63,999 nt of DNA, filler included, from Perkinsus olseni (GCA_013115125.1; 5 parts of 5 records of this genome joined end to end with filler, not necessarily neighbours in it); one strand, 5' to 3'; shown: positions 2,389 to 61,178, counted from the first letter of the whole stretch. Numbers and translations are program-made. The notes: generated from the letters alone by a model not told the origin.

Positions 2389-3809
2389 CTACCTGACTGC
2401 AGAGGACACCACATCTCCGTCAAGAGAAACCTCCACTGACTTTGTTCCAATCTTCCTCGTAACGAGCCATGTGGTCGGCATGCTGATGAGGAAGATTCCC
2501 CAACATATCCAAAATTGAGTCGTATAGGCTACCCTCAACTCAGGGAGATCGACGATGAAGGATGACGTAGCTCCGATGCATTCAACAGCCTTGTAAAAGC
2601 CGGTATACCTAGCAGCCAATGTGGCATTAGCGGCGGAAAGGGTACCCAGTATCCAGTAGGTATAAATTTGTATAACTGAATCTCCAAAACCATAAAGAAT
2701 AATGACAATACACGGGTACCAGTAGGTGGTATCGGTTAGATCAATCCTGTCAGCGTCTGCGACTATATTAGTATAACGATCATACCCACCTCGGTAACCA
2801 TATTGGAGGTAACATCCCAACGCGTAAACAATGTTGAATGATATGAAGACGAACCAGAAGCCCATTACACCGCGAGCCCTGAGTGTCCTCCTTGGGTAAT
2901 CGAGCAACAGTCCACACGTCCACGCACCGACCATCTGAGCTAACCAATACAAGGCCGAGTTCAACCCGCGAGTTCTGACTGTGAATAGTACACCATTGAC
3001 GCCGTTGAATACATAAGTGTAGAAATAATTCGAACCAAAGAATAAAATCAATAACATAAGCATGTTCTTATCAAGAGTAACCGATGCCGCTCCGTTGAAC
3101 TCCTCCTTAACTCCTTTCAGTGGAACGATCACCGCACGACTTCCATTCTCCAAAACAATCTTTGACGGATCGCGTAACAAAAGGAAGGCAGCCACGGACC
3201 CCATAATCATAACCGCTATGAATACGAAATACGAAGCAGGACTAGCCGTATCAGTTTCTGTGTCGAAGTTGAGCGCTAGCTGCAGTATTCCACCAACGAA
3301 GCCACCGAGATTGAAGATCACCCAAAATACCGCGATGTAATGCCCTTTACGATCCTGTGGAGCATAGGCCAGTATTAGCGCCCCTTGCGCTGTCCAAAGC
3401 CATCCCGCACCGAAGCCTAGAATAGCACCAGCCAAGATGAAGAGCCAACCAGTATTGGCTATATGACCAGAGATGTACGCAGCAGCAGCGTAGAAGGCGT
3501 AAGTTAAGCCCCCGGCGCCCATTAAGAGTCGCGGCCGAGCAGGTCGAAAAAAAATCCGCCGAAATAACTGAAAGTAGCAGCGGACACGCCAAGCGCGATG
3601 CTTGCCGGGTCGGCAGCAGAAGGGTTAGCATTGCCAGCTCCACCGAGACCTGCAAGGGCGTTGAAGAAGCCGGGGAGGCAGAAAAAGATGAGCCCGATAA
3701 TGATAACCTGAGTGTATCCCCTGCTGAGTACGGGGACTGGTGAAGGCTGCTTTGAGAAGTTATCTTCCACCAGGAAAGAGTCATCATCTCCAGACGACGA
3801 CGATGTCAT
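2389..3809 (-). pseudogene. UNC-93-like MFS transporter, copy 2, with a 1-nt frameshift (pseudogene or sequencing error)
   Basis: ORFs 3522-3809 and 2389-3522 join into a full multi-TM MFS protein if one G is restored near 3533 (gcggccgag here versus gcgggccgag in copy 1). Confidence 0.8.
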
Positions 3810-13093: not shown

Positions 13094-13193
13094 NNNNNNN
13101 NNNNNNNNNNNNNNNNNNNNNNNNNNNNNNNNNNNNNTTAATTAATTAANNNNNNNNNNNNNNNNNNNNNNNNNNNNNNNNNNNNNNNNNNNN
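13094..13193. other. Artificial contig linker
   Basis: N44 + TTAATTAATTAA (stops in all six frames) + N44. Confidence 0.97.
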
Positions 13194-15706: not shown

Positions 15707-15865
15707 CTCCACAGAATGAGATTAGTGTTTCAACCAGTTCCTTGTATTAGTGTTAACCCTAGTTGGGACACGAATGGAAACTATTGCTGAAGCTGAGGCT
15801 ACGACGGAGACTTCAAGTACAAGTCTGAACTTCGAAATCTCAATTTGCATAAAAGCGGATCAGCT

Positions 15866-15938
15866 TACCAGGAGCGGAGATCGAACCCGCGACCTTCTGC
15901 GTGTAAGGCAGACGTCATAACCGCTAGACTATCCCGGC
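15866..15938 (-). tRNA. trnV: tRNA-Val(TAC)
   Basis: 73 nt GCCGGGATAGTCTAGCGGTTATGACGTCTGCCTTACACGCAGAAGGTCGCGGGTTCGATCTCCGCTCCTGGTA; anticodon stem TCTGC/GCAGA, loop CTTACAC; TTTT downstream; G53:U61 wobble. Confidence 0.92.
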
Positions 15939-16228
15939 ATATCGTTTTTGAAGACCAGCCCGGGTACGTCGACGGATGTTTCCATCACATACCGAAGGGA
16001 TATCGTCGGTACGTTAGCGTGCGAACGAGGCCAATCATGGGGCAATACGATGGGATCCACCACTTCTGGTGGACCACCGGTTGCCAACCAGCATGTGGAA
16101 CCAGCATCAGGAACTCCGCCATATAACAGATTCATCCGCGATGCAGTGCCCCCCACAATGGACCCGAGGCCGGGCAACACTCCCGACCCCCTATCAACCG
16201 TTATTTACTAACTCAGGTGCATCACGTG

Positions 16229-21473: not shown

Positions 21474-23500
21474 TCATGCAGCCCTTAAGGTGAGGGCCTC
21501 CTTTATGGCATCGTTAACACTGAGGCTCACTGCTACTGCGATTGGGCCCTTCACCCAGTTAACACTGAGGCCCTTGTAGAGCCCTTTACGGACGCCCTCG
21601 GTGCGTGCAACATCCACTAAAGAACGTATGACGCCTTTACCAGGGAAGGCTCGGCCTCCGTGTACCTAACATAACGGGGACTGCCACTCTGTCCCAATGC
21701 CCCCCGCTGCCAGCGATCGACCGCCAAGTTTCTGTGTTACTGTGCTAAGGTGAATGCATTACGGAGAGCGACTGGCTCGGCTGGCAGAAGACAGAACTAT
21801 AGAGAACGAGAGAGTCCCACCTGCTGGCGTCTCCGGATGATGTCGAAGGGGTAAGTTGCACTCTGGGCTACCAGTCCCGAGAAGCCGCCGCAAATCAAAC
21901 GATCGAATGCTGTCCATCTGACAGGGGACGGTCTACCAAGATTCAGCAAGGCCTTTGCAGTAGCTACTCAAACGGATATCGGCATCACCGTGAGAGGGCT
22001 GCCGCCAAGTTTTACGTTGCCCCAATACTCATCACGGCTAGGACAGTGTTTCACACTAATACTAGGCCGGTTGCTCGGGATACTGTAGACCGCGAAATGA
22101 ATGCGTGTGGCGGGTTTGCAGAGACCGATGATCCGACTCGGATCATCCGACATGTCTTCTCGCAAAGGCTGGTGTACATTGTGTGATGTGTAGTATCCGC
22201 ACAAACTACATGAACTGGTGCCGATCCGCGGTGCTCAAATAACGACAATCGAACAAGTAAGGCTCCTTAGCTATTCCCTGCTATTTATCCATTCCCGAGA
22301 GACAGTGGCTGCCCATCCACGTTCGCTCACTTCCCGCTCATCTCCCTCCGTTTGGCCTTTAAAGTCTCGAAACACATAAAAGAAGTCCCGGCGTACGGGA
22401 TGATTCCACACAGTGTCGGATACATGCCACCGTAGATGCCGCGGATGCCACGGCTCGCTGAAAAAAGAAGAGCTGTCGGAGAGTCAACACTCCGGGTCGA
22501 TCCCACGGCCTCTTGGAAGAATGAGAAGTGCTCCACCACTACACCACGCCTCTCGGAATCCGGGCGTGCCCCCGAACACGACCTCTCGCCATATTACCAT
22601 AGATCTTCCGCACAGCATCCTTGTAAGAACTAAACTCCCCACGAGTATCCGAGGCTAGCCGCGACCGCAACATCTGCCAAAATGAAGGAGGGCTCCGACT
22701 AGCATCTTCTGAAAACCCTACTTACGTCCAACGGATATGTTGCAACGACGGCCGAGGCCCCGGCACAGTTGCCAGAGAGGAAGCGAATGAGCTCTGCCGG
22801 GCAGTGTTGTCTCAAGGCGGAATCTGGAAGTGGCAGAAATTTCTCGCCGCAAACGCGGAGTCTCCGGTTGCAGTTCTCGCAAGTTCAATAAACCACAGCG
22901 CATCGCTGGAGCTTCCCGTGCATCTAGCGAAGTTCCTGTGCGCAGGAACATCAACTGATGTGGGCGTGCAACGAAGCAGAGTGTAAAACAGAAACATCGA
23001 ACTCTCGTATTACTCTGCAAATAAGTGTTGACCCTGTCGAAGACAGTGTAGTTGGTTGCTGAATATGGCACTATTCTAGTGAGGACCATAAGGTACCCTT
23101 TCCAAAGACCTAACATACAGGCTAGCTACTGCTGCTTTCCCAACCGTAAACAGTTCGGCGGCACACAGCAGATTCGTGTTGGGAACTGGTCCGAAAGGTC
23201 CCTACTGTACCGAGTTGGTGGATTTATGGTACCTACCTCGCATGCCATGCGTAGATACTATACCCTGCATTGTACGGTATGCGCTGCCCCAAGAGAACCT
23301 CATCGCCGGATTAGTCTGGTACCTAGAAGGTCGAGCATCAGAGGTCGATTCCCGAGTGTGATACCTACAGAATCTTCACACGCTCCAGAGGGGCCACTAC
23401 AAACTTGGCCGTTGCTCCGGCTGTGGAGCCACATGCCGCTACGGTCAGGGCTGACAGCCTTACGGGCTCCTCGGCTCCTTCAACCGAGACGCCTTGCGAT
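21474..23500 (-). CDS. Mitochondrial carrier (SLC25, CoA-carrier-like SLC25A42/A16 group)
   Basis: GLWKGYLMVLTRIVPYSATNY; GIYGGMYPTLCGIIPYAGTSF; QSATYPFDIIRRRQQV; LSVNWVKGPIAVAVSL; 5' end approximate. Confidence 0.85.
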
Positions 23501-26237: not shown

Positions 26238-26337
26238 NNNNNNNNNNNNNNNNNNNNNNNNNNNNNNNNNNNNNNNNNNNNTTAATTAATTAANNNNNNN
26301 NNNNNNNNNNNNNNNNNNNNNNNNNNNNNNNNNNNNN
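26238..26337. other. Artificial contig linker
   Basis: N44-TTAATTAATTAA-N44. Confidence 0.97.
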
Positions 26338-26634
26338 CCGTACTCGTCCAGGTGACAGTGCACGAGTCGAAAAACCGGATATGCTAAGAATTTGTGGAGG
26401 GGTGTAGATAGTTCAGTTCACGGTTACACATTAATATATGCTCTTCAAGCTATGATAGAGTGTCGGTGAGGTGTCATCCCTTCAGGTGGTGAGCAGCGTG
26501 AAAAAGACGCAAGAGAAGGACTTGGGAAGCAGCTTTGAAGAGGTAGTACGGGTGGGCGTCGCGGAGTTTGGGTGGGTGATGATTTTTTCCGCAGAAATTT
26601 CCCGATCTTTATTTCTTTCCGAGTCGACAACAGC

Positions 26635-29600
26635 ATGATTTCGTGTTTTACACGCCTGAGGAGGTGACGGTCATCGGCAGCTATTCGAAGAAGGCGTGCG
26701 CCAAGCCGAGGTTGGCCGTGGACGTGGGGGTGAGATTTGGGGAAGGAGTGGTATTGGCGCGCATGTTCATGGCTGGATTATACAGGTTGTGATTCCGGCA
26801 AAGTGCTTGCAGAGTAAGGATTATCTGAATGGTCGCTATCTGAACAAACGTAGGAATCTTGCAGTCTCGAAGGATCTTGGAATTCCTCAACGCTATAGGT
26901 AATGCATATGTGGGAGAGTTGTTGAGGCAGCTGAAGGAGATCATGGATGGCTCGAAAATTGAGCTGAAGATTGGGTACCTTTGTGGGGATCACGCCAAGC
27001 CTATTGTCGAGGTAGTATCCGATGTTGAAGCGCGTAGGATACAAAGTAGGTTGAGCTGTGGTCGTGCCAGGTATGCCCGATTGGGTCTACATGGGTGATA
27101 AGGCTTCTCCCGTGCATTGGCGATGGTACCGATCCCACAGCGATCTCCGGCCCCGAGTTCAGCTGGCTGGCGAGACTTGGTTTGGAGCGCAACTGTTATC
27201 GTATTGATGGTCATGATGGCGAGGAGCCAACTCCACTGTAATAGCGGAGTAGAGTGGTCACTCTACCGCACAGCGAAGGTTTCCCCGGAGTATCTTTCAG
27301 ATATAACTCAGAGGTTGCGGAGGATATTTGGATACGCTCGAGTTCCTCTGCGAGCGAGAGTGGCGAGGGTCATCCGGGTTATGCGAAGGCTGTGACGTTG
27401 TTGAAGATTTGGGCATATCAAAGGGGATTCCTTTATAGGAGAGACGGGGAGGAGAATGCTGGTTTGGCGGGGTAGTAGTGGGAGAATGGTCTGATGGTTG
27501 TATTGATTGGTTATCACGCAGAAGGCGTGAGTTCGATCCATGCATCTTGCACTTAGGTACCATCTTGCTGTTATTATCGATCACGTCATATCATCTTCGA
27601 GTTTGCCGCAGTCCACTAGTGCGTATCAGATATTCAAGCTCGCACTTGTAATAGGGGCTGGAACGTATCTTACATGCTTGCAAGATACATGTTAGGTCAA
27701 CTTTACGTAAATTTCGATAAATCTGTCAGGTGCTTTTATCTTCGACCGATTGGAATTCGAATGCTCTAGTCGTGGGCTCCCAGGAGAAGGAGGAGCGTTC
27801 GATCCCTGATCGTTCCGACTCGGTAATTCCCCTCACGCTATACTACATTATCAACAGTCGCCGTTCGAAGTTGAACGTGTCGTCATCCGTGGGGTTCGAA
27901 CCCGGGACCTTCATCATCATGAAAGCACTCCAGCGTCTTCTTGCCGGTAGCAACGTCGTTATTTTGCATCGTTCCTTCACGCGTGCGTGACCACCTAGCT
28001 CTTGAGTGTCGGCCCAACCCTCGGCCATTATCGAATCTAGGATGAGAGGCCGAGTCGGAGTAGAGCTTCCTTGTTGTCGTGCCTGCTGGTACCGTAGATG
28101 CGTCGTTATGAACCATATCCGCGATGGCTTCTTACTTCCAAATTTTACTGCAAAAACGAGTCGCATTTCCGGAACCATTTTATCGTTTGTTCAGGCTCAA
28201 CTTTTCTCTGGCTTTGATCGGGCCTACAATATCTTTTGGCGTATGAGCTTGGTGACCATCGGTGAGGTTGGTCTCGCTGCTAAGCATTCTCTGGAGGTAG
28301 TTAGATACCTCGTAGCGTATCTTTATCGATTGCCGACGATCATGTTAGTTACTTGATGATCCTAAAGAGGCTGACCCTTTCATGGAAGTGTTCGGCGAGA
28401 AGTAGTATGGGAATTTCGTGGCGCAGTGGTCAAACGAAAGATTTTTTTCCCGCAAGATTTCTTTATTTTTCAGCTCGAGCAAAAGCCTCAGACTACGCTG
28501 GGATTTCGCGGTAACATTGCCTATGGACGGAACCTTCCTGGAAAGTCGCCGCATGGAGGAGAGAGTGAATCGATTACTCGGGCGCGCGCTTAATGACCGG
28601 TTGAAGTCATTGGCTGTGAGAAGGTCATTTGGGAAGCGAACGGTCACAATAGGAGGTAGGAGGATAAAACTCCAGCTTCTTTGTTGTTTCGATGAACATA
28701 TCGAGGCATTTTCGCAATCGATCACGAGGGCGAGCGCTTTATTCTTCTCAGGCATATTGAACAGCGAGCGTACTGGTCGGCTGTTGGATAAGGGTCCATC
28801 GCCCAAGGCAGAGGAGGCGGGAGCATGGCGTAAGACGTATCTGGCGCACAGCGAAGATTGTAGGGTTAATGCTGTTAGGCGAGCTGTGGGGTCCGAAGTC
28901 TGAGCTGAGACGGTTCAAGGATGGCACGATGCTTGAATGCTGTGTTTGGAATGGAGCGGATGATGAATCTGTCGAGGGGCAGATCATTGTAAGATACTTC
29001 TTGTCATGCAGGGGTCGGATAGGTTAACCTTTCAGAGGCATATCTTGGAGCATCATGAGATATCTTATGATGATATTTATGTGACACCGTTGGGTCACAT
29101 TTCGGGATTGAGGCCAGCTGACAGGTCGGAGCTTCAACCTATGATGTGTGATGATGCTTTGGGTATCATATTAGGGATCTTTGGCGTAACTTTGAGCTCT
29201 TACGCAGCGCTCTGCAAGGGATGGAAGATATTCCCTTAGCGATCAAGGATGTGCGTCCCAGTAAGTGGGGTATGGGAATCGAACCCGGGTCGTTCGGACG
29301 AGAGTGATGGATACTTCCCAGGTGATCCAGCGTTCAGCTACACTTCCATCAGCCAAGAAAGTTCGAGCATTTCTGGTCTGCTGGAGGTCGTCATTGAGGT
29401 CGAGTCCAATTCCGCGTGGCCGTCGAAGGTAAAGAGGATATCCTCACCACTCTACTCGTCAGCCGAGCATTCGAAACTGTATAACGATCGTTTCGCTACC
29501 TGAGGAATAAACTGTCGAAGATATAACGATCAAAGTTGATCAACTCTTGCCATCTTGCAATCTTGCTATTTCTCAATCCTTGTTACTCTCTTTTCAGCCC

Positions 29601-31088
29601 CAGGCGATTATTGATACTAAGTCAGCCTTGCTCCTGAAGCTCCGGGAGGGGTTGTTAGTAACGGAGGAGTTCTCTGATGTAAATATATCGGCTACGGAGA
29701 ACCCCTTCCTGGACGTGCACGTCGGTGGTCGACGGGTGACCTATCGATGCAGGATGTGGCACAGAGAAGAGGTGGGTTTAGGAGAAGGGTGCGGGGATGG
29801 AACCAGGGTCTCTTGGATGATGGGTTGACAGGTTGTCCAGTTGGCTACAGCAGCGACTACAACCAGTCCAAATAAGCAGAGAATGGGTGGGAGATATCTG
29901 GTTCGAATCTCGCTGGAGTCGTTTATCGAATTCAGATTGGGAGCATTTCTCTCCATTGCGAACTCTGTGGTACGAGCCGACTCACAGGAATTGGATTCAC
30001 TCCATGACCGCATTATATCCGGTAAATGGCGGAAAAATGTCGCCTGTGGGGTTCGAACCGGCGGCCTCACCGCCATCTTGTTCAGTGTCTAGCGCCGGCT
30101 ATTCGAGCAGCGAAGCGATGGCTGGATAAGCGCCTGCTCTTGACGGGAGTTGATCTCGACAACTTTGCCGAGCTGAGCATGATGTAGTTTGAGGAAATGC
30201 AAGTGATGCTAAGGGCAGCAAGATTTATGTCAGGCATGTGGTCGTCAATCAGAATCCTCAGTCTCCGCACACGGCAGTGCTACTCTGGTTGAAGTTGATC
30301 GAGGCTTGGCATGCCAGTCAGCGACCGATGTAAGGTCCCGGGTTCGAACCGACCCAGCTCTTTTTTTCGTCATTTATGTTCTCAGTTACCTGCTCCAGTC
30401 GTTGACCCCTGGCGAGGAGGAAGAGGAGGGGTCCGAAGAATCCCAACGGCTACTAGAAAAGTTGCAAACTTGTTACGAGGCTGTTCCCATCTCGACGCGA
30501 CCTAGGATGTGGATTAGTAGTCGCCTCGACCCCCACTGTCTTTTGGTACGTTTAAATGCCTTCACCGGGGTTCGAACTGGGGATCTCCCTCGTCAGGTCC
30601 GTACTCCAAGCAATGCTCTATGTCAGCGAATGGCTTCTCTTGCGTCAGCTTCACTCAAGCATGCGTTGACCGCTAGTTGGAAACGGATACTCCGACCTCT
30701 TCCGTCGGAGAATCTTTCCTCCTTGGACGTGGTCATCACGCTGGTTAAGAATAAGGTGGATGCATCGCTACTGCAGCAGCAGTGCGCTCGACACTTCGGT
30801 TCGGTCGGAGTGTTCCTGTGCGGCGCTCGCGGCTCCATCATGGGTATCAAGTGGAGGCCTGCAGCTAGCGTGGCGACGAGGAAACAGTTGGCAGGGGGGA
30901 TGCAGCATTTGGCGGTCAGCGAGGATTTGGTCGTGCCCAATTATGCTTGGGTGTTGAAGAACGTTGTCAGCGGCATGTGTGGCGGAGTGGTGAAAGATGT
31001 CAAGATGCATGGGGTACTCGGCAAGCACGCGAGTTCAAATCCTGGTCCCATCGTTTTTCCTGCTCAGGTCGGCACTAATCTCCTCTAA
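26635..31088 (+). CDS. NOL6: Nrap-family nucleolar protein (NOL6/Utp22), many exons
   Basis: PEEVTVIGSY, KDYLNGRYLNKR, LLKIWAYQRG, LLDKGPSP...LWGPKSELRRFKDG..ECCVW, IPLAIKDVRP, PAIRAAKRWL, GIKWRP; 5' end approximate. Confidence 0.9.
27878..31058. repeat. Eight dispersed intronic tRNA-3'-end-like elements (B-box RGTTCRA) in NOL6
   Basis: 27881-27911(-), 29265-29292(-), 29787-29812(-), 29891-29921(+), 30038-30068(-), 30332-30360(+), 30557-30587(-), 31023-31053(+); each lies inside a phase-consistent predicted intron. Confidence 0.75.
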
Positions 31089-31213
31089 CGTAAACTACTA
31101 CTACTAACCCTACCAACGTAAATGGTTTCTCTTCTACACCAGTTTTCGAGTTGAGGGAGCATGGCGGCATTGACCCTTCTTCGTAGGTTTTTTGATTGTG
31201 TAATTACTTCCTA

Positions 31214-32359
31214 ATGCTATCTGTGCATGCTTGCTGGGTGTTATTGCTATGCATACCAACTTTTGCCGAAATCGTGACCACCACGACTCCTAGTCCTGCA
31301 GAATTAGACGTTGAAGTCTCTACCCAACTCTCCTTTGATAACCCTCCCCTCGACCGACTATACTTCTGTCCGCGAGGCAAAATAGAGGCGGCCCGAGTGG
31401 GCACCAGCTGGCCGGCATATCCGGTCACGCTCAACACTTCGGAGTGTCTGAACTATGACCAAATTATGGGGCTTCCCAATCGACAACAAAATCTGGAGTG
31501 CATCGCAAGTGCTACCGAGGCGTTAACCTCTGCTCTCGACAGAGTCGGGTTGAGTGAGAGCTTCCTCGTTTGGGGCAGCCTGCTGGGGTGGTATCGTCAT
31601 GAAGGCGGTATTATACCCTGGGACTTTGATGGTGACGTCGCCGTTATGAAGGAGTCGTGCAATGCAACCTTCGATGCTCTTCGTGCGAAGGGTAGTGGTG
31701 TTAAGAACATCGCCCAGGCCGTGGACGCGGAACTCCCTCGAGGCTTTCACATCGTCACCGTCACTGATGGTGGTGTTAGTCGAGATTTGGATACCTTCTC
31801 GGGTTGTGAGGCCCAGGAGTTGAGAATTGAAGGCTACTGGCCGGGGACTGAGGATCGTATGTGCTACACCGATTTGTGGTTCCTCGACCATGAGTCCAGT
31901 GAAGGCGCCGATTGTCATTGCGATTCCATCGTTCCTTCACCTCGGGCGTGCATTGAGAATAAGTATTACTCGCGTGGATGTATCTCCGAGGCTGATTTGT
32001 TCCCCCTTGCTGATTCCACACTGCTCGGTAAAGTATCTGTGAAGGTCCCCAACGACCCCTTAGGAGTGCTAAGACGTCTCTATCCCGCTGGCATCGACAT
32101 CAAGAACATGGCCCCTGTACCGAAGAACCCCCTCTTCGAGGATGACTGGTCCATTGTGGTCGCTAGCAGCCCAACAGCGATGCAGCAGCCTAGGGGACAC
32201 ACAACTCTATGGTGGTTCGTTGCAGTGGTGATCGTCGCGATCTTAGCCTGTTTGTGCATCCCAAAATTGTACCGATGTTTCGTTAAACGCCGCCGGGCTG
32301 GGTACGCGCTGCCCAAGCGAACTGATGATTCCACTCAAGAGTTTGTCATCATCGGATAG
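31214..32359 (+). CDS. LicD/fukutin-family phosphotransferase, copy 1
   Basis: GSLLGWYRHEGGIIPWDFDGDV motif; signal-peptide-like N-terminus; C-terminal TM followed by KRRR; intronless. Confidence 0.85.
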   Translation: MLSVHACWVLLLCIPTFAEIVTTTTPSPAELDVEVSTQLSFDNPPLDRLYFCPRGKIEAARVGTSWPAYPVTLNTSECLNYDQIMGLPNRQQNLECIASATEALTSALDRVGLSESFLVWGSLLGWYRHEGGIIPWDFDGDVAVMKESCNATFDALRAKGSGVKNIAQAVDAELPRGFHIVTVTDGGVSRDLDTFSGCEAQELRIEGYWPGTEDRMCYTDLWFLDHESSEGADCHCDSIVPSPRACIENKYYSRGCISEADLFPLADSTLLGKVSVKVPNDPLGVLRRLYPAGIDIKNMAPVPKNPLFEDDWSIVVASSPTAMQQPRGHTTLWWFVAVVIVAILACLCIPKLYRCFVKRRRAGYALPKRTDDSTQEFVIIG

Positions 32360-34009
32360 TAACACTGCTCCACAAGGCGATCGATCCCCTTGCAGCAGTT
32401 CCTCCAGTCACTGACAGTGTTTTACCGAGTCTTGCTGCTTATGTTCTCAGTTTACGCTACTTGTCGTTTGTTTTGGTGTTGTGTTTTGCAAGTCCACTCC
32501 GATGGTGGGTGGTGCCCGCAGCTGAACGGATGTGCTAAGGAGGGGGGACTACCGAGCAGAAACTAAATGCGGTCGAAGGTTGTGCGCGGTGAACGCTGTG
32601 ATCAAGCTCGCGGTGCTTCAATGGAGCCCACTGCTAAAGCTAGCTACGCTCCGCTGGTGTTTATGCGTGCAGGGTAGTCTGGGCACTAGCTATATCTTTA
32701 GGATGGATCTCACAAGCTCCTCTTCCCCTTCGTGTTACACGTGTGTGTGAGAGTAATACAGCAGATAAGAACTTCTGATTGAGAAGGGCTCTAGTAGAGG
32801 GGAGATCTATGACACGTTGTAGCCGTGATGACGGCGGTCACGAGCTCGACCCAGTCCTCCGGTCCCTGAATGTGGAGGTAGGATACTAGGGACTGCTGAC
32901 TCGATCCAGGCCGGGCATGAAGTCGGGCAGTTCCATCCTGGCCTACCGAGCAGTCGTGGCCACTAACTAGTAGTTGGCAGCAAGCGCATGCATCCGCCCA
33001 CCGGGCGGTGACACTGATGAGTATCGAGCAGATCAGAACAGAACCACACACTGTCCACACCACCACCCTTTGGAACGTTGAAGTTTAACTGCAGCCATTC
33101 GGTTTCCTTAAGCTCGAAGTTCGATCTTCGGGTCCGATCTTCAAGCTCGATGATCGGGCCCTATTATTATACCTCACAGGGGATGCTAATTCTACTAGCC
33201 TAGTGGTATCCACTGTGTCACTCACTGACAGACACCACCCACTCGCAAGGAGGGGCCATCGCCTCAATCTAGAATCCGCACCAACTTGATGCTATCGGGA
33301 CTGTGGCGGATGGCACACGGAGCCGGACTGGAGTGTTGCTTTTGTTCTCAGATGGTCGTTGAGACTCGCTGTTCTCACGTCTCCCTCTTCTCAAGGGGCT
33401 CGCCTGCCATTAGCCGATGGAATGATTCTCTCTTGTTGTCCGCCCCGGAAGCTCAACCTGTTGGCATAGCCAAGTAAAGTTCGGCGGGCAGTGTGCCGTG
33501 GGTCGAGAGTGACAGTTGTGGCGCAGCTCGGGAAACAGATCCCCCATCTTGTTCAAACAAGCAGTCACAGATCGCTATATCAGCTCTCGCTTGAGATGCC
33601 ATCTCGTATACCCACTGCAATGGTGTTTTCGAGTCGCGGCAATTGCATCGAGGAAGAAGTCTGACGTCACCCGCATGGGATAGCAGTGCCCCGCGCACGG
33701 AAAGACTAGCTTTCATTCAAGGAAGCAGAGAGTCTCGGTCAGACTCCAGTCGCGCCTTTTCGACTGGCGAAGGCTCGGCGGGAGGAGTGTACAGAGTGAA
33801 TGTCCCGGCGTTGGTGTGACCCAGTGTCCTGCTGGAAAACCCAGTGGTGCAGCTCGCACGATGCAAACTTATGTTGCCACTCCACTCCCCCAAACTTTTG
33901 GAACTTACTTCGTGATTATGGACGGGTTCTCTCTATGGTAGCTCTATCGACGTTAGTTCGCCGTCGGAATTCACCCTTGATCACAGTTCCTTTGCTTGTC
34001 TAGTAAGTG

Positions 34010-35110
34010 ATGCCTCCTCTGCACGTCTTCACGTTATTCCTGCTTTCGCTGTCAACTTCCACTGCAGTCGAAATATCCACTCAACTCGCCTTCGACCAGC
34101 CTCCTCTCGATCGGCTTTTCTTCTGCCCGCGAGGCAAAATAGAAGAGGCTCGAGTCAGCAGCGGCTGGCCGGCGTATCCGGTCACTCTGAACACTTCGGA
34201 GTGTCTGAACTATGACCAAATTATGGGGCTTCCCAATCGACAACAAAATCTTGAGTGCATCGCGAGTGCCACCGAGGCGTTAACCTCTGCTCTCGACAGA
34301 GTCGGGTTGAGTGAGAGCTTCCTCGTTTGGGGCAGCCTGCTGGGGTGGTATCGTCATGAAGGCGGTATTATACCCTGGGACTTTGATGGTGACGTCGCCG
34401 TTATGAAGGAGTCGTGCAATGCAACCTTCGATGCTCTTCGTGCGAAGGGTAGTGGTGTTAAGAACATCGCCCAGGCCGTGGACGCGGAACTCCCTCGAGG
34501 CTTTCACATCGTCACCGTCACTGATGGTGGTGTTAGTCGAGATTTGGATACATTCTGGGGCTGCGAGGTCCTGGAGCTGCGGCTTGAGCGCGATTGGCCG
34601 TGGTTTGGCGGTCGTATGTGCTACACCGATATATGGTTCCTCGACCACGAGTCCAGTGAAGGCGCTGCCTGCCAGTGTGACTCCGACGTCCCTTCCCCTC
34701 GAGTGTGTTTCGAGAATAAATACTATTCTTGCGGCTGTATCGCCGAGACTGATTTGTTTCCCCTTACTGATTCCAGGCTGCTCGGTAAAGTCTCTGTGAG
34801 GGTCCCACACAACCCTTCAGGAGTGCTGAGGCGCCTCTATCCCACTGGCATCGACATCAAGAACATGGCCCCTGTACCCGAGAACCCCCTCTTCGAGGAT
34901 GACTGGTCCATTGTTATCGCTAACACCCCAGCAGCTCATGAGCTGCTTAGTGAGCACAATACTCTTTACTGGTCCATTGTAGCAATTATTGTCGTGATCT
35001 TGGCATGTGCCGGTATCATGCTGCTTTACCGATATGCCGGTAAACGACGTGGAAGATATGGGCCAGCTCAGCCAGCCGACGATGCAACCCCAATGTTTGC
35101 CGTTGAGTGA
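34010..35110 (+). CDS. LicD/fukutin-family phosphotransferase, copy 2
   Basis: Same motif and architecture as 31214-32359. Confidence 0.85.
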   Translation: MPPLHVFTLFLLSLSTSTAVEISTQLAFDQPPLDRLFFCPRGKIEEARVSSGWPAYPVTLNTSECLNYDQIMGLPNRQQNLECIASATEALTSALDRVGLSESFLVWGSLLGWYRHEGGIIPWDFDGDVAVMKESCNATFDALRAKGSGVKNIAQAVDAELPRGFHIVTVTDGGVSRDLDTFWGCEVLELRLERDWPWFGGRMCYTDIWFLDHESSEGAACQCDSDVPSPRVCFENKYYSCGCIAETDLFPLTDSRLLGKVSVRVPHNPSGVLRRLYPTGIDIKNMAPVPENPLFEDDWSIVIANTPAAHELLSEHNTLYWSIVAIIVVILACAGIMLLYRYAGKRRGRYGPAQPADDATPMFAVE

Positions 35111-35595
35111 AGACTCTTCTCCGGAGAGTAAACACCTTATCGTTCGAAATTCTGGCTCCCTCGGGTCAATCTCGACCAACCTGCCCACGAGAGTGCATAA
35201 ACTTGAGTTGCCCTATACCGATTCCCTCTGTGACACAGCTCTTCATCGGTCCTTCACTGAAGGACCTTCAGTTGCTCTCGTTCATCTCTCTTTTTATACA
35301 TCTACCGTTCCCAATATGCGTTGAGTTGCCGTACGAGAGTTGATCTTGTGGTTAGTTTTCGATGGACGGTTTATCATTCGCCAGGGACATGTTCATGAAT
35401 AGCGAGACCATGTCGTGGTCAGTGACCACTGGTCACCATGATGGGCTTGCTGTATGGCACACAGTTCATTGGAACAGTTCGCTTATGCCAGGTCAAACAA
35501 CGTGTTCGCTAAATGGGTATGGGAGCCCCTACGCATTCGCAATTTGATTCGGCATGCGCTCGGAGGTCATATGGCGGTGTATTGCCTGTCGCCAC

Positions 35596-35660
35596 GCTCT
35601 GCCGAATTTGGTTCCTTGGTGTCACGCCGCGTGACACCAAGGAACCAAATTCGGCAGAGC
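35596..35660. repeat. Perfect inverted repeat, 32-bp arms, 1-nt spacer
   Basis: gctctgccgaatttggttccttggtgtcacgc-c-gcgtgacaccaaggaaccaaattcggcagagc. Confidence 0.95.
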
Positions 35661-35966
35661 CAAATTCGCGTGACTCACGCGCCCTTTCATACTGAGGTAA
35701 ATCCCGCAGGGTTTTATCGACGGTGAAACCGGTGCGAAAGGGGACAATATTTGTGTGCTAGCAGCATTGGCTAGAGCGCTAGCCAGGTCGGATTCACCTT
35801 CTCGTGATACTGATCGTGGTCAGGGTGTAATATTCTAGTACTGTCGCGGTACTACCGCGGTATATCTTCCTCGACGAAAGGGAGGCGGTTCTGCTAAACG
35901 CGTGAACCCGAGCCACCTTTCGTCTGTCAGTTTGTCTTCATGTTTTCTCGGTAACGATTTGATCGA

Positions 35967-36261
35967 CTCTGCAGCCTCTGCGCGAGTCGATCAATTTGTC
36001 TTGAAGATAGTGCGGTCATAGCCGCAGGACTCCCGGTGGCTTGTCTGCGCCTCGCCATAGAGGACGACGTGACTAGCCCCTAGTCCTCTCTCTTTCCTTC
36101 TAGTACCTCAATCTGAGCGGCTCTGCAGCCTTTGCGTGAGCCGATCAATGTGTCTTAAGACATGGCGGTCATAGCCGCGCGACTCGGTATGCAGTGGCTG
36201 GTCTGCGCCTCAGCATAGAGGACGAAGTGACTAGCCCCGGGTCTCCTCCTCTCTTCTAGTA
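35967..36261. repeat. Diverged tandem duplication, ~140-nt unit
   Basis: ctctgcagcc...gatcaat...gcggtcatagccgc...gtctgcgcctc...catagaggacga.gtgactagcccc...ttctagtac occurs at ~35967 and ~36121. Confidence 0.85.
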
Positions 36262-38940
36262 CAAGAAGTACTCTTCATAACGCCCTTTGAGTTGCGTCAG
36301 GGCCAAGTCCAATTTTCCTTGCTAGCCAGCATTGGATACCCGAGCAGAGGTCTGGATCTCGTTGGCTCCGCGTTCGTCTGCTAAGCTTATGCGCAACGGA
36401 CAACCACTTTGTGCCATGCACTTACTATTGAACAGCGACCCCTCGTTATCGACAGCTTATCTTGTCAACATGGAGTCATGTTCCTCCTGAGAACAGTAGC
36501 GCTACTTCGTATCGATGAGTTGGCTCGTCTCGGGAAAATTCGCGGACAATTTGAGAGCCATTTAGTGGCTCTCCGCAAACAGCCTGGTATGAGAATCATC
36601 TATTCCACTGTTCACCATCACAAACCACGAGTGCCTTCCCCGGCAGCTTCCGTATGGCCTTTGCAACACTCCTTCAAACGTTGCACGCTGCGCTTTACAT
36701 ACAGTGCGTAGATCGGGTGCTCCCATGCAATGAGGCTCATTGTCCTCCGTCAGGGTTTGCCAGTTCAAAAGATTGCCCTCGGGCGACGGAGTGGAACTAA
36801 GGTTGAGAAGTATCTTCGAGACGCATGGTGCGTCACGCATCTAGTCTAATTCCACGACTTGCACAGCAAGTTTCCAAGGTAGAAGCAGCACCCGCGAACG
36901 GGTAAGCCGGGAGTTTGGGACTCCTCTGGTACGTCCGGCTTCGTTGCGTTTGTCTTCGCACGGACGCTCCCGCCTTGCCACAGAACTTCCTGACGGAACC
37001 CGGTTCGACGGGACTTGGGTTGTGTACCCGCTGTGCGCAGCCAAACGCAGGAACTGTTGGCGCAAGGCCACAGGAAGGGCATTCGGCGTAGCTCCTTGTC
37101 GCCCTCACCGCCTGCAGGTCCGTCGTGGCCACCGCCCCGACTCCCAGTCCCCGTAGTTAGAGGTTTCACCTCCTGTTGAGCTGCTCAACAGGAGCAACTT
37201 GACCATTCATCGCACAAAATGACGAATTTTTCAATCACTCACTCGTGTCAAAAAGTTCCAAAGTTTCAACCGCAAAATGTGGAATCTTCTTAACATAGGT
37301 GAAAAGTTTTCACTGAAAACTTATACAAGGCGTATACTCGAGAAAAGGCCCACCCATGGTAACTTCGTATTGCGAACGAGTTACGGCTTCCAGTGGGCCC
37401 TCGACAGGAAGCTCTCATCGTGCCCCAAAGGGTGGTGTGCTGACTTACAGCCGCTTTTTCTTCCGTGTTATTCAAGCGACAAACGAACCATCCGAACGCT
37501 AGAAACCCCTCGAAAGATGCTTTACAAAGTCGAAAAACGTAGGACGGGTCCTGCAGACAAATGAGGAGTCCTCATTTGATGTGGCCGTCACGCCACATGG
37601 CCAATCCTCTTCGTTTACCCACGAAAACGACTCTCACATCTACCCCTTATAGTTTACCGTTGGGTCCTTAAGTACTGCGATCATCACTCCCCCATCCTAC
37701 CTCATTCTTCCTTACGAGTGTAGTTCATAGTCGACGAGCTAGCGGCCCTCCAGACGACCCTTGCGCCGACGCGCACAGCGCATTCCACCGAACGTGCGGC
37801 AGGAGGCGTTCCAAGACCTGACACCGTGCACCGGTCGTGAGCTACAAGCTGTATGAAGCTTGTTGTCTAGCGGTATTCTCTTCGAACGCGGAACCTCCAC
37901 AAAGCGCAGGAAGCCCTGAACGTACGCGTGCAACTGCGCAAGAGGCTTACGCGCGCCTACGGCGAGACAGCAGCGTAACCCTTCTCACGCTTGTACCGCA
38001 GAAAACTGAGGTCGCACGGGATCCCTTGAGATGCCGTATTAACAACTCGGCCCGAGAAGGGGATACCGTCCCCACTACAGCCTGTAACAGGGTGAGCGAT
38101 ATAAACCCATTGCGCGTCACACTTCCCACTGTACATTCTTCTTCAACTCACATCGCCCATCCTAGTATTGTCGAGCCCATCCAGGCCGGCGATGGAGGGT
38201 TGGCAACCAGAGGACCTCTACCGGAGACTCACCTACCTGCTCACGGGTTCCAGTGTCACTGAATGATGCCAAGCGGAAACTCAAGGCTCGGGTTCCTGCA
38301 GGTCTCGGAGACCTGTCTCCTCAGACTTGTACCGCGTGCACTATAACTCAGTACAGTGTGGCTATTTGAGACGGGGCTCAAAGAGAGGTAAGACCGGACT
38401 CGAGAGGAGTTCGGGAAACTGATCTAGTTGTTGGATTTATGATGAACGTATGTTCCATAACATGACGAGGAACGCACGTGTTCACTGGGACGAACGTACG
38501 TACTACGAGCAAGGACGCACAAAGAGCAAGGCGGGTACGTAGCAGCAATGAAGTTAGTTGTCACTATACTGCACGCGGATGGCGGGGAAGGGTGTGATGG
38601 AGCGTGGTACGCCAGCAGGAGGTGCCTCGCTGCTAGAGGCTCATCCTCGAGCGGTTCAGGACGCCTCGGATCAACGCGGCACGGATACTACTTGACGACA
38701 ATGTGAGAGCTTTGACAGAGTTTTTCTTGCAGCCCCCTAGGGGGGTGACAGAGATAGCGAAGGGCGCCCTGCTCACAGCACCGAGACATTTTCGAGCGTC
38801 TCCAATGAAGACTCTTCATGTTCGTCTCGAATTGATCCTTATTGCAACTGGTTGTTATGATCTGTGTCCTTTCGAGTGATAGTCAAATTGCCTGGGGGAG
38901 GGGAGGTGAAGCGGCAGGTTTGTCTCGCACGCCTCCCGGA

Positions 38941-39379
38941 ATGATGATCCGTGGTATCGTCATTATCATCATGACCATCACTGAGGCCTCTGCTCACAGT
39001 TGGGTGTTTAATCTGAAGGGAGACATTAAGAGTGGGGTCCCGAGGATGGGGCCAACAACCCACAACCACCCCGACCAGTATTATGCGGTGAGTAGCTCCT
39101 TCTCGACTCATACCGGTGATGCTTCCCTTCAGCGCCCAATGTGTCCCAAGCCGTCCTTAAGTCAGTGCGAGGGTTTACCCCCGCCTTACAAGCCCTTGGA
39201 CGAGACCTCTCTGAGGCCTTGCAGGCGTGCTGGCTCTGACGGGGCTCCTAACATGCTAAGTCGCGCGGAGGTTACTCGAGGTCCCCTCGAAGGTCTTCTC
39301 TCGACTTCTGATGTATCCTCTTCAGGTGGGAAGCTTCATATCTCTTGGATGGGCAATGGTCACACTAACTCGGTCTCTG
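38941..39379 (+). CDS. Secreted protein with predicted mature N-terminal His (LPMO-like His-brace candidate), truncated by the contig end
   Basis: MMIRGIVIIIMTITEASA|HSWVFNLKGDIKSGVPRMG...GGKLHISWMGNGHTN; 45-nt introns 39088-39132 and 39281-39325. Confidence 0.65.
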
Positions 39380-39479
39380 NNNNNNNNNNNNNNNNNNNNN
39401 NNNNNNNNNNNNNNNNNNNNNNNTTAATTAATTAANNNNNNNNNNNNNNNNNNNNNNNNNNNNNNNNNNNNNNNNNNNN
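39380..39479. other. Artificial contig linker
   Basis: N44-TTAATTAATTAA-N44. Confidence 0.97.
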
Positions 39480-52378: not shown

Positions 52379-52478
52379 NNNNNNNNNNNNNNNNNNNNNN
52401 NNNNNNNNNNNNNNNNNNNNNNTTAATTAATTAANNNNNNNNNNNNNNNNNNNNNNNNNNNNNNNNNNNNNNNNNNNN
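52379..52478. other. Artificial contig linker
   Basis: N44-TTAATTAATTAA-N44. Confidence 0.97.
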
Positions 52479-55073: not shown

Positions 55074-56227
55074 GGTAAGCCAATCATATAGTAGGCTATG
55101 CAACCAATAGATGATGTTACGCTGTTGATGGCCAATGACGGTGATGTGTTCAGTGCGAAGCCTCTCGGGGTTCCCTCTGGCTCGCTCTTTCATTGAGTTA
55201 TGAATCCGGATAGACAATCCTCTATGCGACCAAATGTCAGCTGGGATGGGGTGAACGAGTTTTGAGATGATCAACCTCTTCGGGACCCCTCAGGATCGTG
55301 TGACAGCCGAACACTGCGGCAAACGACTCCATTGGTGCGATCCACCCATCGAAAAGCCGCCACGGCCTCCCTCTGCGATCGCTGTTGACCTTCCGAGTGT
55401 CATTTGATCACTCCGCACAGTCCAAATGGCATTTAGTAAATGACTGCGCTCCCGGCTGAATACCACAAACAATGAGTATCATGTCGCAGCGGTAGGTCAT
55501 CCGACCCTGTCGAGCTTGTGACTGAGTTGGGACACTGGTTTTCGAGAACTAGCTTCATTTCATCCGATTCAGCCGCCGCCATCCCAATGAACACTCATTT
55601 GTCGCGCTCGGCGCCACGGAACAACTGTCCCATCACCTGCCCCGTACAAAGAGAGAGAAAAAAAGAGAGAAAAAAATCGGTGTGTTGGGCACACACGCCA
55701 CGGTAACTGGTCTGAGCGTCACAGCATACGTGGAACTAGTGGTCAAAGCGCGCACAAGAGTCCTGCAATGGGCTGACACCTGCCGCTAGCTGAGACCGAC
55801 CGAGTTGTGTGCCAAACACGACATAGGGAACGAGCAAGGTGAGGTAACGAGTCCGGCTCGAACTGTACCTTCAAGCACACGTGCTTTCCAATTCACGACG
55901 AGCGACCTCAATACTCGAGCTATCATGACAAAGCAGGCTACAGCATGCTACTCTCAAACTCATACTCTCGTCTGGGTTCGATTCCCGCGTGGGATATTTT
56001 CCCATAAAACACCTCGACAGTTGTTTCCCAAGGACGCACGAATGGATCCGCATCGGTCCAGTCGAAGACTCTCACTTTCCTTCACACAGCTCCTGGCTAA
56101 CCATAGGGAGCGGGGCTGTGTGACAGTCTTAAGTGCTCTACCCTGTGTAACAATACTCTTATGAGCGGCAAGCCCATGGTGACAACCGTGGACGGGAAAC
56201 GCGAGCAGCATTACTCTAATATGATGT

Positions 56228-58513: not shown

Positions 58514-61178
58514 TTACCCGTCCTGGGAGTTATTCCCGACGAATTTGGCCTTGAACCTCGGCAGCTGATAGGAAGCTCCAGGAGGAGGAGGAGGGTACAT
58601 AATATGGACAAAACTGAGAAATGCCGAGAGCCGGGATCGAACCAACGCCCTTTGAGACTACACAACAGCAGAGCTTTCCTAGAGACAATCGTACATGGTG
58701 ATGGCGAATGACAAGACCATCATCGCCGAGTGACATGCCGCCTCCCCAATACAGCACTACTGGAAGGGGACTGCCGTGCAGGACCCGAGACTAAAATAGA
58801 CGGAACGATCCCGAGGGCATGAGGGAAGGGCAGTTATACCAAGGTTGAAGGCCTTCACAGTTCCTTCGAGGGAATCAATCTTACGGCCTAGTGAATCTAC
58901 TTTCTTGCTCGAGTTTTCCACCAGCATCGACAACTGCACTATGTCTCGATGACCCATTTGGCTGTTACCTATCAACAGCAGCAGCGTCGGCAGACGATAC
59001 GGACGTTTCACAGAAGTCTTGGGGCAGATGCGTCCGAAGCGCAGCTTTATACACGACCATTGAGTATTCATACATCAGCCACAGATGCCCGTGCCATAGA
59101 AGAATAAACGACACTGCGTAGGTGATGGGGGGAATGTTTACTAACGAGCTGCATGCAGGAGGCGAGGAACTCAGTGAGTTTGATCTCTCCCGTGCCATCA
59201 GGGTCCATCAATCTGAACAGCTGCTCAGCATCCTTCATCGGAATCCCGAGAGTCTCGAACTTCTCTTGGACCTAGTCACAGCGCTGTGCCCTCATGCAGG
59301 TCACCGTCGTAGTCATCGCCCCACTTCCCGCATCTTCCACGCAGCTCGGAACTCGGCCTGGCTGAGCGTTCCCGACTGGTCAACATCAGAGAGCTCGAAG
59401 ATTCTCCTCAACGAGTTCGCAGCGGACTTCTTCTCCTCTTCCTTTTCTTGCTCGACCTGTTCTTGGGTACCTAGTCATCTTGCAATCTCGAACTTCCTTA
59501 ACGCTGCCCGTTCATCGTGATAACCAGCTTTACGTGTTGCAGTGCCCAGAGTGTTCTCCACAATAACCCCAACAACAATATTAAGTAGTCCATAGGTAGT
59601 TGACAGGATAAGCAGAATGAATAGGAAGCCCATCAGTGGCTGCTGATGGATCACCTGAGCACGCCGCCTCAGCCATCTCCAGTCGGGCTCGATTTTGAAC
59701 TCGAGCACGGTGCTCCGTGGCTCAAGTGTTGGGGTTGGATGAAAAAAAACGAAAATTCAGAGACCGCCAATCATCGGCAGTTGTAATCGAAGCCCTTTCT
59801 TCAATCCCCTCATCCCGCCGTTGCTGTTAGTCCCACATGCCTCACTATACCGTCCGCCCAGTTATCCAGTGTAATGACTTGCCACAGCGTCAGCATCGAC
59901 CTCGGCACAGTACCGAAGTAGGTTGAATACGCCCATTCCGTGCCTGCAGGCTGCATAGGAATGGTGGTAGTGATGGTGATGGTAGTACCATCATAAGAGA
60001 GGGCTCCGAGGTAAGCTTCATGGTTGTGGCCGACCTGCATGGTTAGGAATATGGCGCAGACGTAGATGAGGCATACCAAAAACACGGCTACCCAGGCGAG
60101 AGTGCGTACCTTCCGAGGAGGGGCTGGTCTCGTGGCCAGGAAGGGTCTTACACTGTGGACCAGCCCTTCAACGATGAGCCACAGCTCTTTGAACATCCTC
60201 AATAATCGTACGAAACGAACAAGCCTTAGCATCCGAACGACGCGTAGGGCGGTCTGATGATGATGATGATGATAAGTTATTGAGATGATGCTGGCATGAC
60301 CCTTACCAGCGCCCGGACGTCGGACGCAGCACACTCGCTGACTAGGGGCAGTATCCAGGTATCAACCACAGCCAGCCAGACCTGGGATGGGACCACCCGG
60401 ACAGAGGGGAGATGATTATGATGATGATGATGATGACCAGTGCGAAGTCCATGAGGTTCCACCCATCCATAAAGTAGGATAGTCGGTGAGTTTTTAGGCG
60501 TAATATCATTTCGAGTAGGAAGACCACTGTGAATATATTCTCACTGATAAACCAGAAGAGCCGTTCCTGAAAGATAACAGGGTCGTAGGAGTCCACTGCT
60601 GCCGTCGTGAGGTAAACCTTCGAGAAGGGCATGCCCCGATAGGGGCTGGCAGGGCAGCGATAAGCAACAAAGGGAGAGCAAGAGCAGCTGCAGCCCCAAG
60701 GAGGGGGGAGGTCTTCGACAGAGAATATTAAGGCTTCGTGGTTTGGGAACAATGATCCAACCAGGGTAGTGCATCGTCACAGTGCATATGTTAATAGCAT
60801 GACTGCCTTTTAACCGATCGCCCAGTCAACTAGACTCTTCATCCTAATTTTCACGACGATCGATACACAACCCATAGATATTATTACATTAAGACAACCC
60901 TCTTTATATCAAACTACATAAAACAGTGAATATTTATACCTATTCATGTTATATCATTTCCTGGTAATAGCTGATAAAATAATAATACGAAAATATAAGT
61001 AATACAAACCTATTTTATTACTTAAGATGAATATTCACCAATTTGTAATTTTCCAGACCGATCTCAGCTGGGAGTGCCGATCGACTGCTCACCTTGATCT
61101 CTTCTGCGGGGCTCTTGCACTGAACACCATTGTTGGCGGTGGCATCTTCAAGGAGTTGCTCTGATGAGCATGGGCATT

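Follow-up and report, generated by a model that had tools for sequence, protein, structure and literature searches.

Nine of the 23 introns found in the gene for NOL6/Nrap, the homologue of Utp22, in a 63,999-nucleotide (nt) stretch of Perkinsus olseni DNA (GCA_013115125.1; hereafter the window, which is eukaryotic with a G+C content of about 50%) are largely made of decayed pieces of tRNA genes. Each element has the layout of the 3' part of a tRNA, running from the variable loop through the T loop, which contains the B-box, to the 3' acceptor strand and the discriminator. The elements lie in both orientations relative to the gene, no longer have tRNA structure, and have counterparts in P. marinus. 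The explanation favoured here, with moderate confidence, is that NOL6 of a Perkinsus ancestor received copies of several tRNA transcription units, most of them 5'-truncated, that these copies became or took over introns, and that they are now decaying.

NOL6 is encoded on the plus strand at 26338-31088, with its stop codon ending at 31088; the first ~78 residues lie upstream of 26338, beyond a masked block at 26238-26337. The Pfam domain Nrap_D3 matches the locus weakly, while the exon at 30597-31013 matches 'Nucleolar protein 6 [Perkinsus olseni]' at 99% identity and the proteins of P. marinus and P. chesapeaki at 86-90%. There are 23 GT..AG introns between 26543 and 31067, and a loose contig end at 26484 points to at least one further intron upstream. 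The evidence comes from contigs of four public runs (one recorded as metatranscriptomic RNA sequencing) aligned to 26338-39379, in which GT..AG segments are skipped identically by the contigs of all four runs. Among the joints listed from these RNA contigs, 13 fall in NOL6, including that of 27823-28194. The remaining ten introns were placed in three ways: by enumerating the GT..AG candidates that keep one frame open; by comparing exon lengths with contig coordinates, where the sums (340 against 340, 472 against 470 and 497 against 496) agree once letters fitting either side of a joint are allowed for; and by aligning the spliced translation to three annotated Perkinsus NOL6 proteins (P0001, P0002 and P0003), with which it is collinear throughout. 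Joints, frame, exon lengths and orthologue collinearity thus bear out the eight introns in which an initial annotation of this DNA had seen tRNA-like elements, all of them GT..AG introns of plus-strand NOL6; what that set lacked was the rest of the 23 and, among these, the intron 27472-27556 with a ninth element. Eight of the element-bearing introns measure 49-85 nt and the ninth 372 nt. In a sample of 104 Perkinsus genes, 72 contained introns, one to ten each and mostly shorter than 100 bp (PMC3101222), so NOL6 is intron-rich for the genus. Introns outside NOL6 are putative; most other genes of the window are without RNA-contig cover.

Two features of the gene are recorded alongside this model. 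NOL6 introns often start with GTAGT or GTAAT rather than GTAAGT (GTAGT or GTAGG in 8 of the 23), and in 10 of the 23 cases the exon after the intron begins with GT; since the Perkinsus spliced-leader donor is given as 'Gguag' (PMC3101222), GTAG may be the usual donor in Perkinsus. The window also contains four pairs of 44-N masked blocks (13094-13193, 26238-26337, 39380-39479 and 52379-52478), spaced roughly 13.0-13.1 kb apart, of which the pair at 26238-26337 covers part of the NOL6 5' region.

The 43-nt segments of eleven elements and of the one real tRNA in the window, a tRNA-Val, align without gaps. A covariance model built from these twelve sequences (R1) found only its own members when the window was scanned, at 24-38 bits; the next match scores 15.7 bits and arises because one member is palindromic and so also reads in reverse, and all others fall below 10 bits. 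As R1 retrieves only its members, the window is taken to hold eleven elements besides the real tRNA, nine in NOL6 introns and two elsewhere. Each of the eight introns first singled out does hold its element, and all eight align gap-free to the 3' part of tRNA-Val; the impression that most other genes lack such sequences is upheld too, with just two more elements in 64 kb. A second, sequence-only model (R2) was trained on the eight elements of the initial annotation. The features are as follows, with NOL6 elements described as sense or antisense relative to the plus-strand gene.

Intron 6, 27472-27556 (85 nt): sense element, core 27521-27551; RNA joint 27470>27556; 17.6 bits with a leave-one-out matrix.
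Intron 8, 27823-28194 (372 nt): antisense element, core 27881-27911; RNA joint in 4/4 runs; R1 30.2 bits, R2 25.0 bits.
Intron 15, 29261-29321 (61 nt): antisense element, core 29264-29294; 4 nt between its acceptor end and the 5' splice site.
Intron 17, 29772-29831 (60 nt): antisense element, core 29783-29813; T loop mutated (TTCCATC).
Intron 18, 29887-29935 (49 nt): sense element, core 29891-29921; begins 4 nt past the first base of the intron.
Intron 19, 30022-30085 (64 nt): antisense element, core 30038-30068; a T5 run comes next, which reads as A on the strand of the gene.
Intron 21, 30330-30385 (56 nt): sense element, core 30332-30362; begins 2 nt past the first base of the intron.
Intron 22, 30546-30596 (51 nt): antisense element, core 30557-30587; an RNA-contig exon piece starts at 30596.
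Intron 23, 31014-31067 (54 nt): sense element, core 31023-31053; loop TTCAAAT, then a T5 run.
Tenth element, 58616-58658, minus strand: core 58622-58652; the best preserved; R1 38 bits, R2 out-of-sample 13.9 bits (E 0.0036).
Eleventh element, 55960-56002, plus strand: placed in a possible 51-nt GT..AG stretch, 55970-56020; R1 24.3 bits, R2 out-of-sample 9.0 bits (E 0.14).
tRNA-Val(UAC) gene, 15865-15939, minus strand: the yardstick and the only tRNA in the window; found by ARAGORN and by Rfam RF00005 (61.4 bits).

Four of the nine NOL6 elements (introns 6, 18, 21 and 23) are therefore sense and five (introns 8, 15, 17, 19 and 22) antisense. The 5' part of the tRNA is missing in both orientations alike, which implies that the truncation belongs to the element and not to its host. 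Directly after the discriminator, 7 of the 11 elements have TTT, as a terminator of RNA polymerase III (Pol III) would; in the real tRNA-Val the T run stands ~11 nt further on. Among the sense elements, those of introns 18, 21 and 23 have their tRNA-like part beginning 2-9 nt past the intron's first base and their T run in the pyrimidine-rich stretch before the 3' splice site, that of intron 21 lying in the pyrimidine-rich 3' part of the intron. Over all elements the distance to the splice site varies from 2 to 58 nt. For intron 23, the RNA evidence is an exon piece that ends at 31012, beyond which the contig continues for 65 letters. The tenth element pairs at five of five T-stem positions when G-U is counted, has TTT after its discriminator, and lies in a candidate 81-nt intron (GTAC...CAG) of a minus-strand gene at 58614-58694, a stretch that is in frame and without a stop.

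The B-box motif itself is far more frequent than expected. Over both strands of the whole window GGTTCRANYC has 12 matches against 2.41 expected, a number that none of 100 shuffles reaches. Because GGTTCGAACC is its own reverse complement, this strand count is inflated, and the 12 matches fall on nine separate sites, of which three are palindromic and five lie in NOL6 introns. The shorter form GTTCRANNC is present in 8 of the 23 NOL6 introns, whereas 1000 dinucleotide shuffles average 0.50 introns and never exceed 4, so that the motif density proposed in the initial annotation does exceed that of shuffled introns. GGTTCRANYC is found in 5 of the 23 against 0.068 in dinucleotide shuffles, and the NOL6 exons (2745 nt) contain one GTTCRANNC and no GGTTCRANYC. 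Across the eleven elements and the real tRNA, G53, T54, T55, C56 and A58 do not vary, and at least 90% of the sequences have C61; in the nine NOL6 elements all six of these positions, which are the B-box core, are constant.

The likeness to tRNA extends beyond this core. On scanning both strands (128 kb) with R2, the best match outside the training set was the 3' half of the real tRNA-Val (16.3 bits, E 5.7e-4), followed by the 58.6-kb element (13.9 bits) and the 55.97-kb element (9.0 bits). With a leave-one-out weight matrix, the real tRNA-Val scored 27.9 bits and the best sequence outside the aligned set 15.2 bits, in an exon; these out-of-sample tests had one genuine tRNA as test case. Intron 6 aligns locally to tRNA-Val positions 7-61, comprising the D arm, anticodon arm and T loop, with a score of 37 (z = 10.1); the match occupies positions 14-67 of its 85, and the element reaches position 80. 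Judged by this alignment, intron 6 is a near full-length decayed relic of tRNA-Val. In the 20 columns outside the 11-nt B-box, the 11 elements share 39.5% identity, compared with 26.3% (largest 30.3%) in 500 shuffles, an excess that derives mainly from the variable-loop columns (45%) and the trailer (43%). Descent of the elements from tRNA genes is thus well supported by sequence comparison, and a convergent origin of bare B-boxes is not supported. P. marinus has hundreds of near-identical copies of some tRNA genes, for instance 349 of tRNA-Leu and 116 of tRNA-Gly (PMC3706591); these copy numbers, together with the transposons that target tRNA genes in the same species, show that tRNA genes are unusually dynamic in Perkinsus.

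The exon match that sets the noise level of the matrix, at 15.2 bits, is 27787-27817 (plus strand), just before intron 8; it is read as chance because it codes for residues conserved in P. chesapeaki. Two weaker matches, 22482-22512 (14.4 bits) and 23333-23363 (13.4 bits), lie in putative minus-strand introns (22458-22542 and 23323-23368) of a mitochondrial-carrier gene (Pfam Mito_carr, three open reading frames (ORFs)), the first of which also has an A-box-like word and a relaxed ARAGORN match. They may be older relics and are not above noise; with scores near the best chance match, they were not counted as elements. A sub-threshold Rfam match to the C/D-box small nucleolar RNA sR28 (13.7 bits, E 4.4) covers the intron 8 element at 27849-27921, opposite the gene strand, and is probably chance.

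The elements are not structural tRNA mimics. Run on the whole window, ARAGORN at default settings and Rfam at its gathering score identify only the tRNA-Val at 15865-15939; no tRNA or other Rfam family is found at the B-box sites of the NOL6 introns, and RF00005 with E up to 10 gives no match in 26500-32000, in intron 6 alone or in 58595-58705. Relaxing ARAGORN makes it unspecific, with 43 matches at 80% of its thresholds and 266 at 70%. What had been described as a T-arm stands as a sequence motif at tRNA spacing, but not as a stem: 26 of 45 T-stem cells are paired in the nine NOL6 elements (57.8%) against a shuffle mean of 61.4%, 450 of 500 shuffles being as high, and in 29772-29831 the loop is itself mutated. 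When the T-stem partner is slid by one column, pairing is still 47-49%, and only G53-C61 is constant. The 5' acceptor strand is absent. The A-box TRGCNNAGTGG, allowing up to one mismatch, has 25 matches in the window against 24.3 expected, none of them upstream of the eight elements, and so the absence of a D-arm and anticodon arm first reported holds for those eight but not for the ninth, intron 6 being the exception in which D-arm similarity to tRNA-Val is retained alongside that to the anticodon arm. Candidate tRNA 5' halves in other NOL6 introns, such as an A-box-like word in intron 10, were rejected, as A-box matches are at the chance level. In 22 of the 23 NOL6 introns the predicted folds have z above -2, a stability at the level of shuffles, with only intron 6 below -2, and the predicted folds do not form a T arm.

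The age of the elements can be gauged from P. marinus, for which two ORFs from one 6211-nt contig read through NOL6 introns: P0004, found with window ORFs that read through introns, and P0058, found by a profile-free search with the full protein. The exon parts of P0004 and P0058 are identical to the annotated protein of P. marinus ATCC 50983 (192/192 and 33/33 aligned residues). P0058 spans the orthologues of introns 17, 18 and 19, and P0004 those of introns 22 and 23, so that all five comparable introns are present in P. marinus. The orthologue of intron 22 is likewise 51 nt long, appearing as a 17-residue gap relative to the annotated protein; that of intron 23 appears as 18 extra residues at the same place, of equal length by aligned-residue count and diverged in sequence. 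Exhaustive back-translation reveals that the peptides RGSNL (intron 17), WDSNL (19) and RIRTG (22) can encode the 11-nt antisense B-box, and these sit exactly at the P. olseni element positions. Other proteins, of which 12,000 residues were examined, have a background of 0.175 B-box-compatible sites per 100 residues. No B-box-compatible site is present in the P. marinus read-throughs of introns 18 and 23. For intron 17 the loop is broken in P. olseni, and the P. marinus peptide still allows an intact one. In total, three of the five orthologous introns can encode a B-box at the matching place, at a protein level of comparison to which synonymous positions and compensating frameshifts are invisible. 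Since P. marinus introns allow a B-box at the same places, the elements appear to be older than the split between P. olseni and P. marinus and to have eroded independently since. A metagenome scan turned up no NOL6 relatives, and searching for ORFs that read through introns 18 and 19 gave nothing, P0058 having come from the full-protein search. Against 29598-29771 of the window, the annotated P. marinus NOL6 (P0002) is short of 38 residues that P. olseni, P. chesapeaki and the P. marinus genomic ORF P0058 all have, probably through an error in the gene model.

The initial annotation suggested tRNA-derived inserting or intron-generating elements, and the first part of this, the tRNA origin, is borne out by R2, by the 27.9-bit matrix score and by intron 6; the generation of introns goes a step further and is best phrased as a scenario. 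The source would have been the transcription units of several tRNA species, one of them a nearly complete tRNA-Val, inserted into NOL6 in either orientation in a Perkinsus ancestor. Most copies would have lost their 5' part in the course of insertion, for instance where copying began at the 3' end and stopped short. The insert would then have become an intron with splice sites at or beside its ends, the terminator T run of sense copies serving in the position of a polypyrimidine tract. Alternatively, the insert could have entered an older intron that later shrank around it. That the insert itself became the intron seems most economical because the relic fills most of an intron near the smallest size in NOL6, and the case for intron creation is that the inserts would leave too little room for a prior intron (49-85 nt in total; positions 14-80 of 85 in intron 6). 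Decay would later have removed the RNA stem and, in different introns of P. olseni and P. marinus, the B-box cores, leaving elements with no present function.

Several observations weigh against this scenario. No target-site duplication or insertion scar was found at the elements, where intron-end repeats are 0-5 nt long in an ordinary AG|GT context, and no poly(A) or LINE-like (long interspersed element) tail. A search for faded elements in the 14 other NOL6 introns gave a median score of -1.3, where the median of 161 exon windows is about -1.7 (p = 0.24), and these candidates were rejected; the presence of an element is all-or-none, not a continuum of decay. The elements are also strongly clustered: 9 of the 11 are in one gene spanning 7.5% of the window (binomial 3e-9), and 7 of the last nine NOL6 introns carry one, as opposed to 2 of the first 14 (p = 0.0066). 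Neither this 3' bias nor the clustering would be expected if insertion had been random and decay neutral. Finally, the invariant positions are exactly the B-box core, which could mean selection, a reading biased by the elements having been found by motif. Per intron, the excess over the 52-80 other introns of the window amounts to a Fisher p-value of 2e-4 to 1e-5, a rough estimate because it rests on an ab initio intron finder, trained on NOL6, that over- or under-predicts elsewhere and was used only for the range 52-80. Possible causes of the clustering include a local burst, copying from the 3' end of the transcript, the drawing of inserts to sites bound by TFIIIC, and selection on the B-box.

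Orphan B-boxes bind TFIIIC in yeasts. The main rival to the insertion scenario, or an addition to it, is accordingly an array of extra-TFIIIC (ETC) sites, in which the B-boxes, whatever their origin, would be kept by TFIIIC binding DNA in either orientation; such an array, which the initial annotation also proposed in a chromatin-anchoring form, might help to organise chromatin or tie the transcription of NOL6 to the state of Pol III/TFIIIC. On sequence grounds this has some appeal, in that the nine NOL6 elements are constant at the B-box core while their stems pair at the chance level, five match GGTTCRANYC exactly, both orientations occur without an A-box, nine sites within 3.6 kb of one gene is an unusual density, and three of the five comparable P. 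marinus introns can still encode the box. It is nevertheless rather unlikely. Core constancy is partly built in by the search for the motif; the core is broken in P. olseni intron 17 and not encodable in P. marinus introns 18 and 23; and, with visible intron divergence of ~20%, the full retention of two of five cores is, on a rough estimate, not clearly beyond drift. The tRNA-like flanks and T runs would moreover be needless for such sites and point to origin rather than function. A combination of the two ideas may be entertained as a speculation, of doubtful standing: Perkinsus tRNA units would have served as raw material for introns, with a burst of several 5'-truncated, terminator-ended tRNA copies into the 3' part of NOL6 that were spliced from the start and whose B-boxes were then kept as a TFIIIC array. 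Such retention would explain both why the core outlasts the stem and why there are nine elements in one gene.

Less probable still is a single mobile intron-generating family, either an introner or a short interspersed element (SINE) with a tRNA-related head, seen after divergence. At least one gene, and perhaps as many as three, has elements in its introns, which they fill and in which they lie either way round; the elements of introns 8 and 21 share 19 identical nt in opposite orientations, and the antisense copies of introns 8, 15 and 19 have the same non-pairing stem letters. Beyond these cases BLAST finds nothing common outside the core. No near-identical copies exist within the 64 kb, the likeness is confined to the tRNA-like core, and the inverted terminal repeats, target duplications and fixed ends of a mobile family are not seen; nor are an A-box, unusual fold stability (22 of 23 introns have z above -2) or a clearly intergenic copy in the window. 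The 3' acceptor strands are 32% identical among the elements, which is near chance, and the elements have 15-65% identity to each other and 35-65% to tRNA-Val. This argues for several source tRNAs rather than one family, and the elements look like copies of several tRNA species and not like one family of introners or SINEs.

That the elements act at the RNA level, as tRNA 3'-end mimics in the pre-mRNA that are bound by tRNA-handling proteins and regulate splicing, is very unlikely, and the corresponding proposal of the initial annotation is not sustained. The host gene would make an attractive candidate for such a protein: it is the homologue of Utp22, which is structurally homologous to the tRNA CCA-adding enzyme and has a fold like it (PMC3794860) and for which a role in tRNA export is cited in PMC5311497 to Eswara et al. 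2012. Regulation of this kind would also account for the clustering in NOL6, which is otherwise unexplained. However, the transcript carries five of the nine elements in antisense, shuffled sequences reach the same level of T-stem pairing, there is no 5' acceptor strand and Rfam finds no cloverleaf, the predicted intron folds do not form the T arm, and the cores are being lost lineage by lineage.

Chance, or the over-reading of a palindromic GC-rich motif, can be practically dismissed: the palindrome does reduce 12 matches to nine sites and an exon position (27787-27817) does reach 15.2 bits by chance, but this reading is refuted by the shuffle tests of the motif in window and introns, by the out-of-sample retrieval of the real tRNA with R2, by flanks that are alike beyond the motif, by the intron 6 alignment (z = 10) and by the orthologous signals in P. 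marinus.

Comparison with known systems reveals partial resemblances to each. Like the introners of Micromonas, Aureococcus, dinoflagellates and fungi, the NOL6 elements are foreign sequences that fill most of a short intron, in either orientation and in several introns of a genome; unlike them, they have no near-identical copies (within the 64-kb window), terminal repeats, target duplication or fixed ends, resemble several tRNAs and sit mainly in one gene. Unlike the fungal introner-like elements, as described in PMC3609843, the introns that bear them are neither longer nor more stably folded than their neighbours. The main text of a 2024 survey of 1093 introner families mentions neither tRNA nor SINE, and in the available text of a 2024 review tRNA is mentioned only in other senses. 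Like tRNA-derived SINEs and retropseudogenes, the elements have a tRNA-like region whose B-box is intact, a cloverleaf in decay, and 5' ends truncated to varying degrees while the 3' end is constant. They differ in having no A-box, LINE-related tail or poly(A), in a 3' end that is the tRNA's own discriminator followed by a Pol III terminator T run, and in their location, as 9 of 11 are in confirmed introns and the tenth is in a candidate intron, with none clearly intergenic in the window. The ETC sites of yeasts, as generally described, similarly have a B-box consensus without an A-box or Pol III gene and are independent of orientation; the NOL6 boxes, known here from sequence, are flanked by tRNA sequence and terminators, sit nine in a row in the introns of a Pol II gene and have been partly lost between sister species. 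Introns have reportedly also arisen from captured DNA, as with a mitochondrial-DNA-derived intron in Bigelowiella and gains linked to double-strand-break repair in Daphnia, where, as here, an unrelated cellular sequence in a coding region is spliced out as a new intron. Each of these is said to be an isolated event that has a clear donor or short direct repeats on its flanks, whereas NOL6 has nine inserts of one sequence class with flanking repeats of at most 5 nt. Within the same genus, the Dada DNA transposons of P. marinus target tRNA genes, measuring 4.7-11 kb, inserting into the A-box and encoding a transposase (PMC3706591); this is a parallel in that tRNA genes are numerous and a focus of mobile-DNA activity, but nothing of that kind is present in or beside the element-bearing introns of NOL6. 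A literature search, outside which subscription journals and supplementary files fell, found no description of tRNA-derived introners or of tRNA-like introns in Perkinsus, and on intron gain with tRNA-like sequence only permuted tRNA genes turned up. The NOL6 elements depart in defining features from each of the nearest classes: introners, SINEs and retropseudogenes, and ETC sites.

The origin of new spliceosomal introns is a long-standing question, and the sources with good support to date are, to our knowledge, introners (transposon families) and the occasional capture of stray DNA. Of the introns of the conserved gene NOL6, a third consist of pieces that appear to come from several tRNA species and to be shared by two Perkinsus species. 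Should tRNA units prove to be a source of introns and their B-boxes a TFIIIC array, this would constitute a new class of intron source and would link Pol III promoter elements to the structure of a Pol II gene. If the elements extend beyond NOL6, it becomes testable, in a genus for which genomes and RNA-seq data are public, whether Pol III transcription units seed introns, how they are copied, and whether the leftover B-boxes gain a TFIIIC-dependent role; if they are confined to NOL6, they amount to a local curiosity. The observation, made in one window, is robust and out of the ordinary.

Elsewhere in the window, the neighbours of NOL6 at 31.2-35.3 kb contrast with it in being covered by unbroken RNA contigs. 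The long plus-strand ORFs 31196-32359 and 34007-35110 each have a LicD-family match and adjoin the 23-intron NOL6; the contigs cover parts of the first and span 33985-35306 without a break, including the whole of the second. In a very highly covered gene at ~38.0-39.4 kb, the RNA contigs reveal two 45-nt GT..AG introns, 39086-39132 and 39278-39324, which are among the shortest seen in the window. At the start of the window, positions 1-300 and 2921-3220 form a direct repeat, 97% identical at a spacing of 2920 nt, beside a minus-strand UNC-93/MFS-type ORF (2389-3624); this is probably a tandem gene duplication clipped by the window start.

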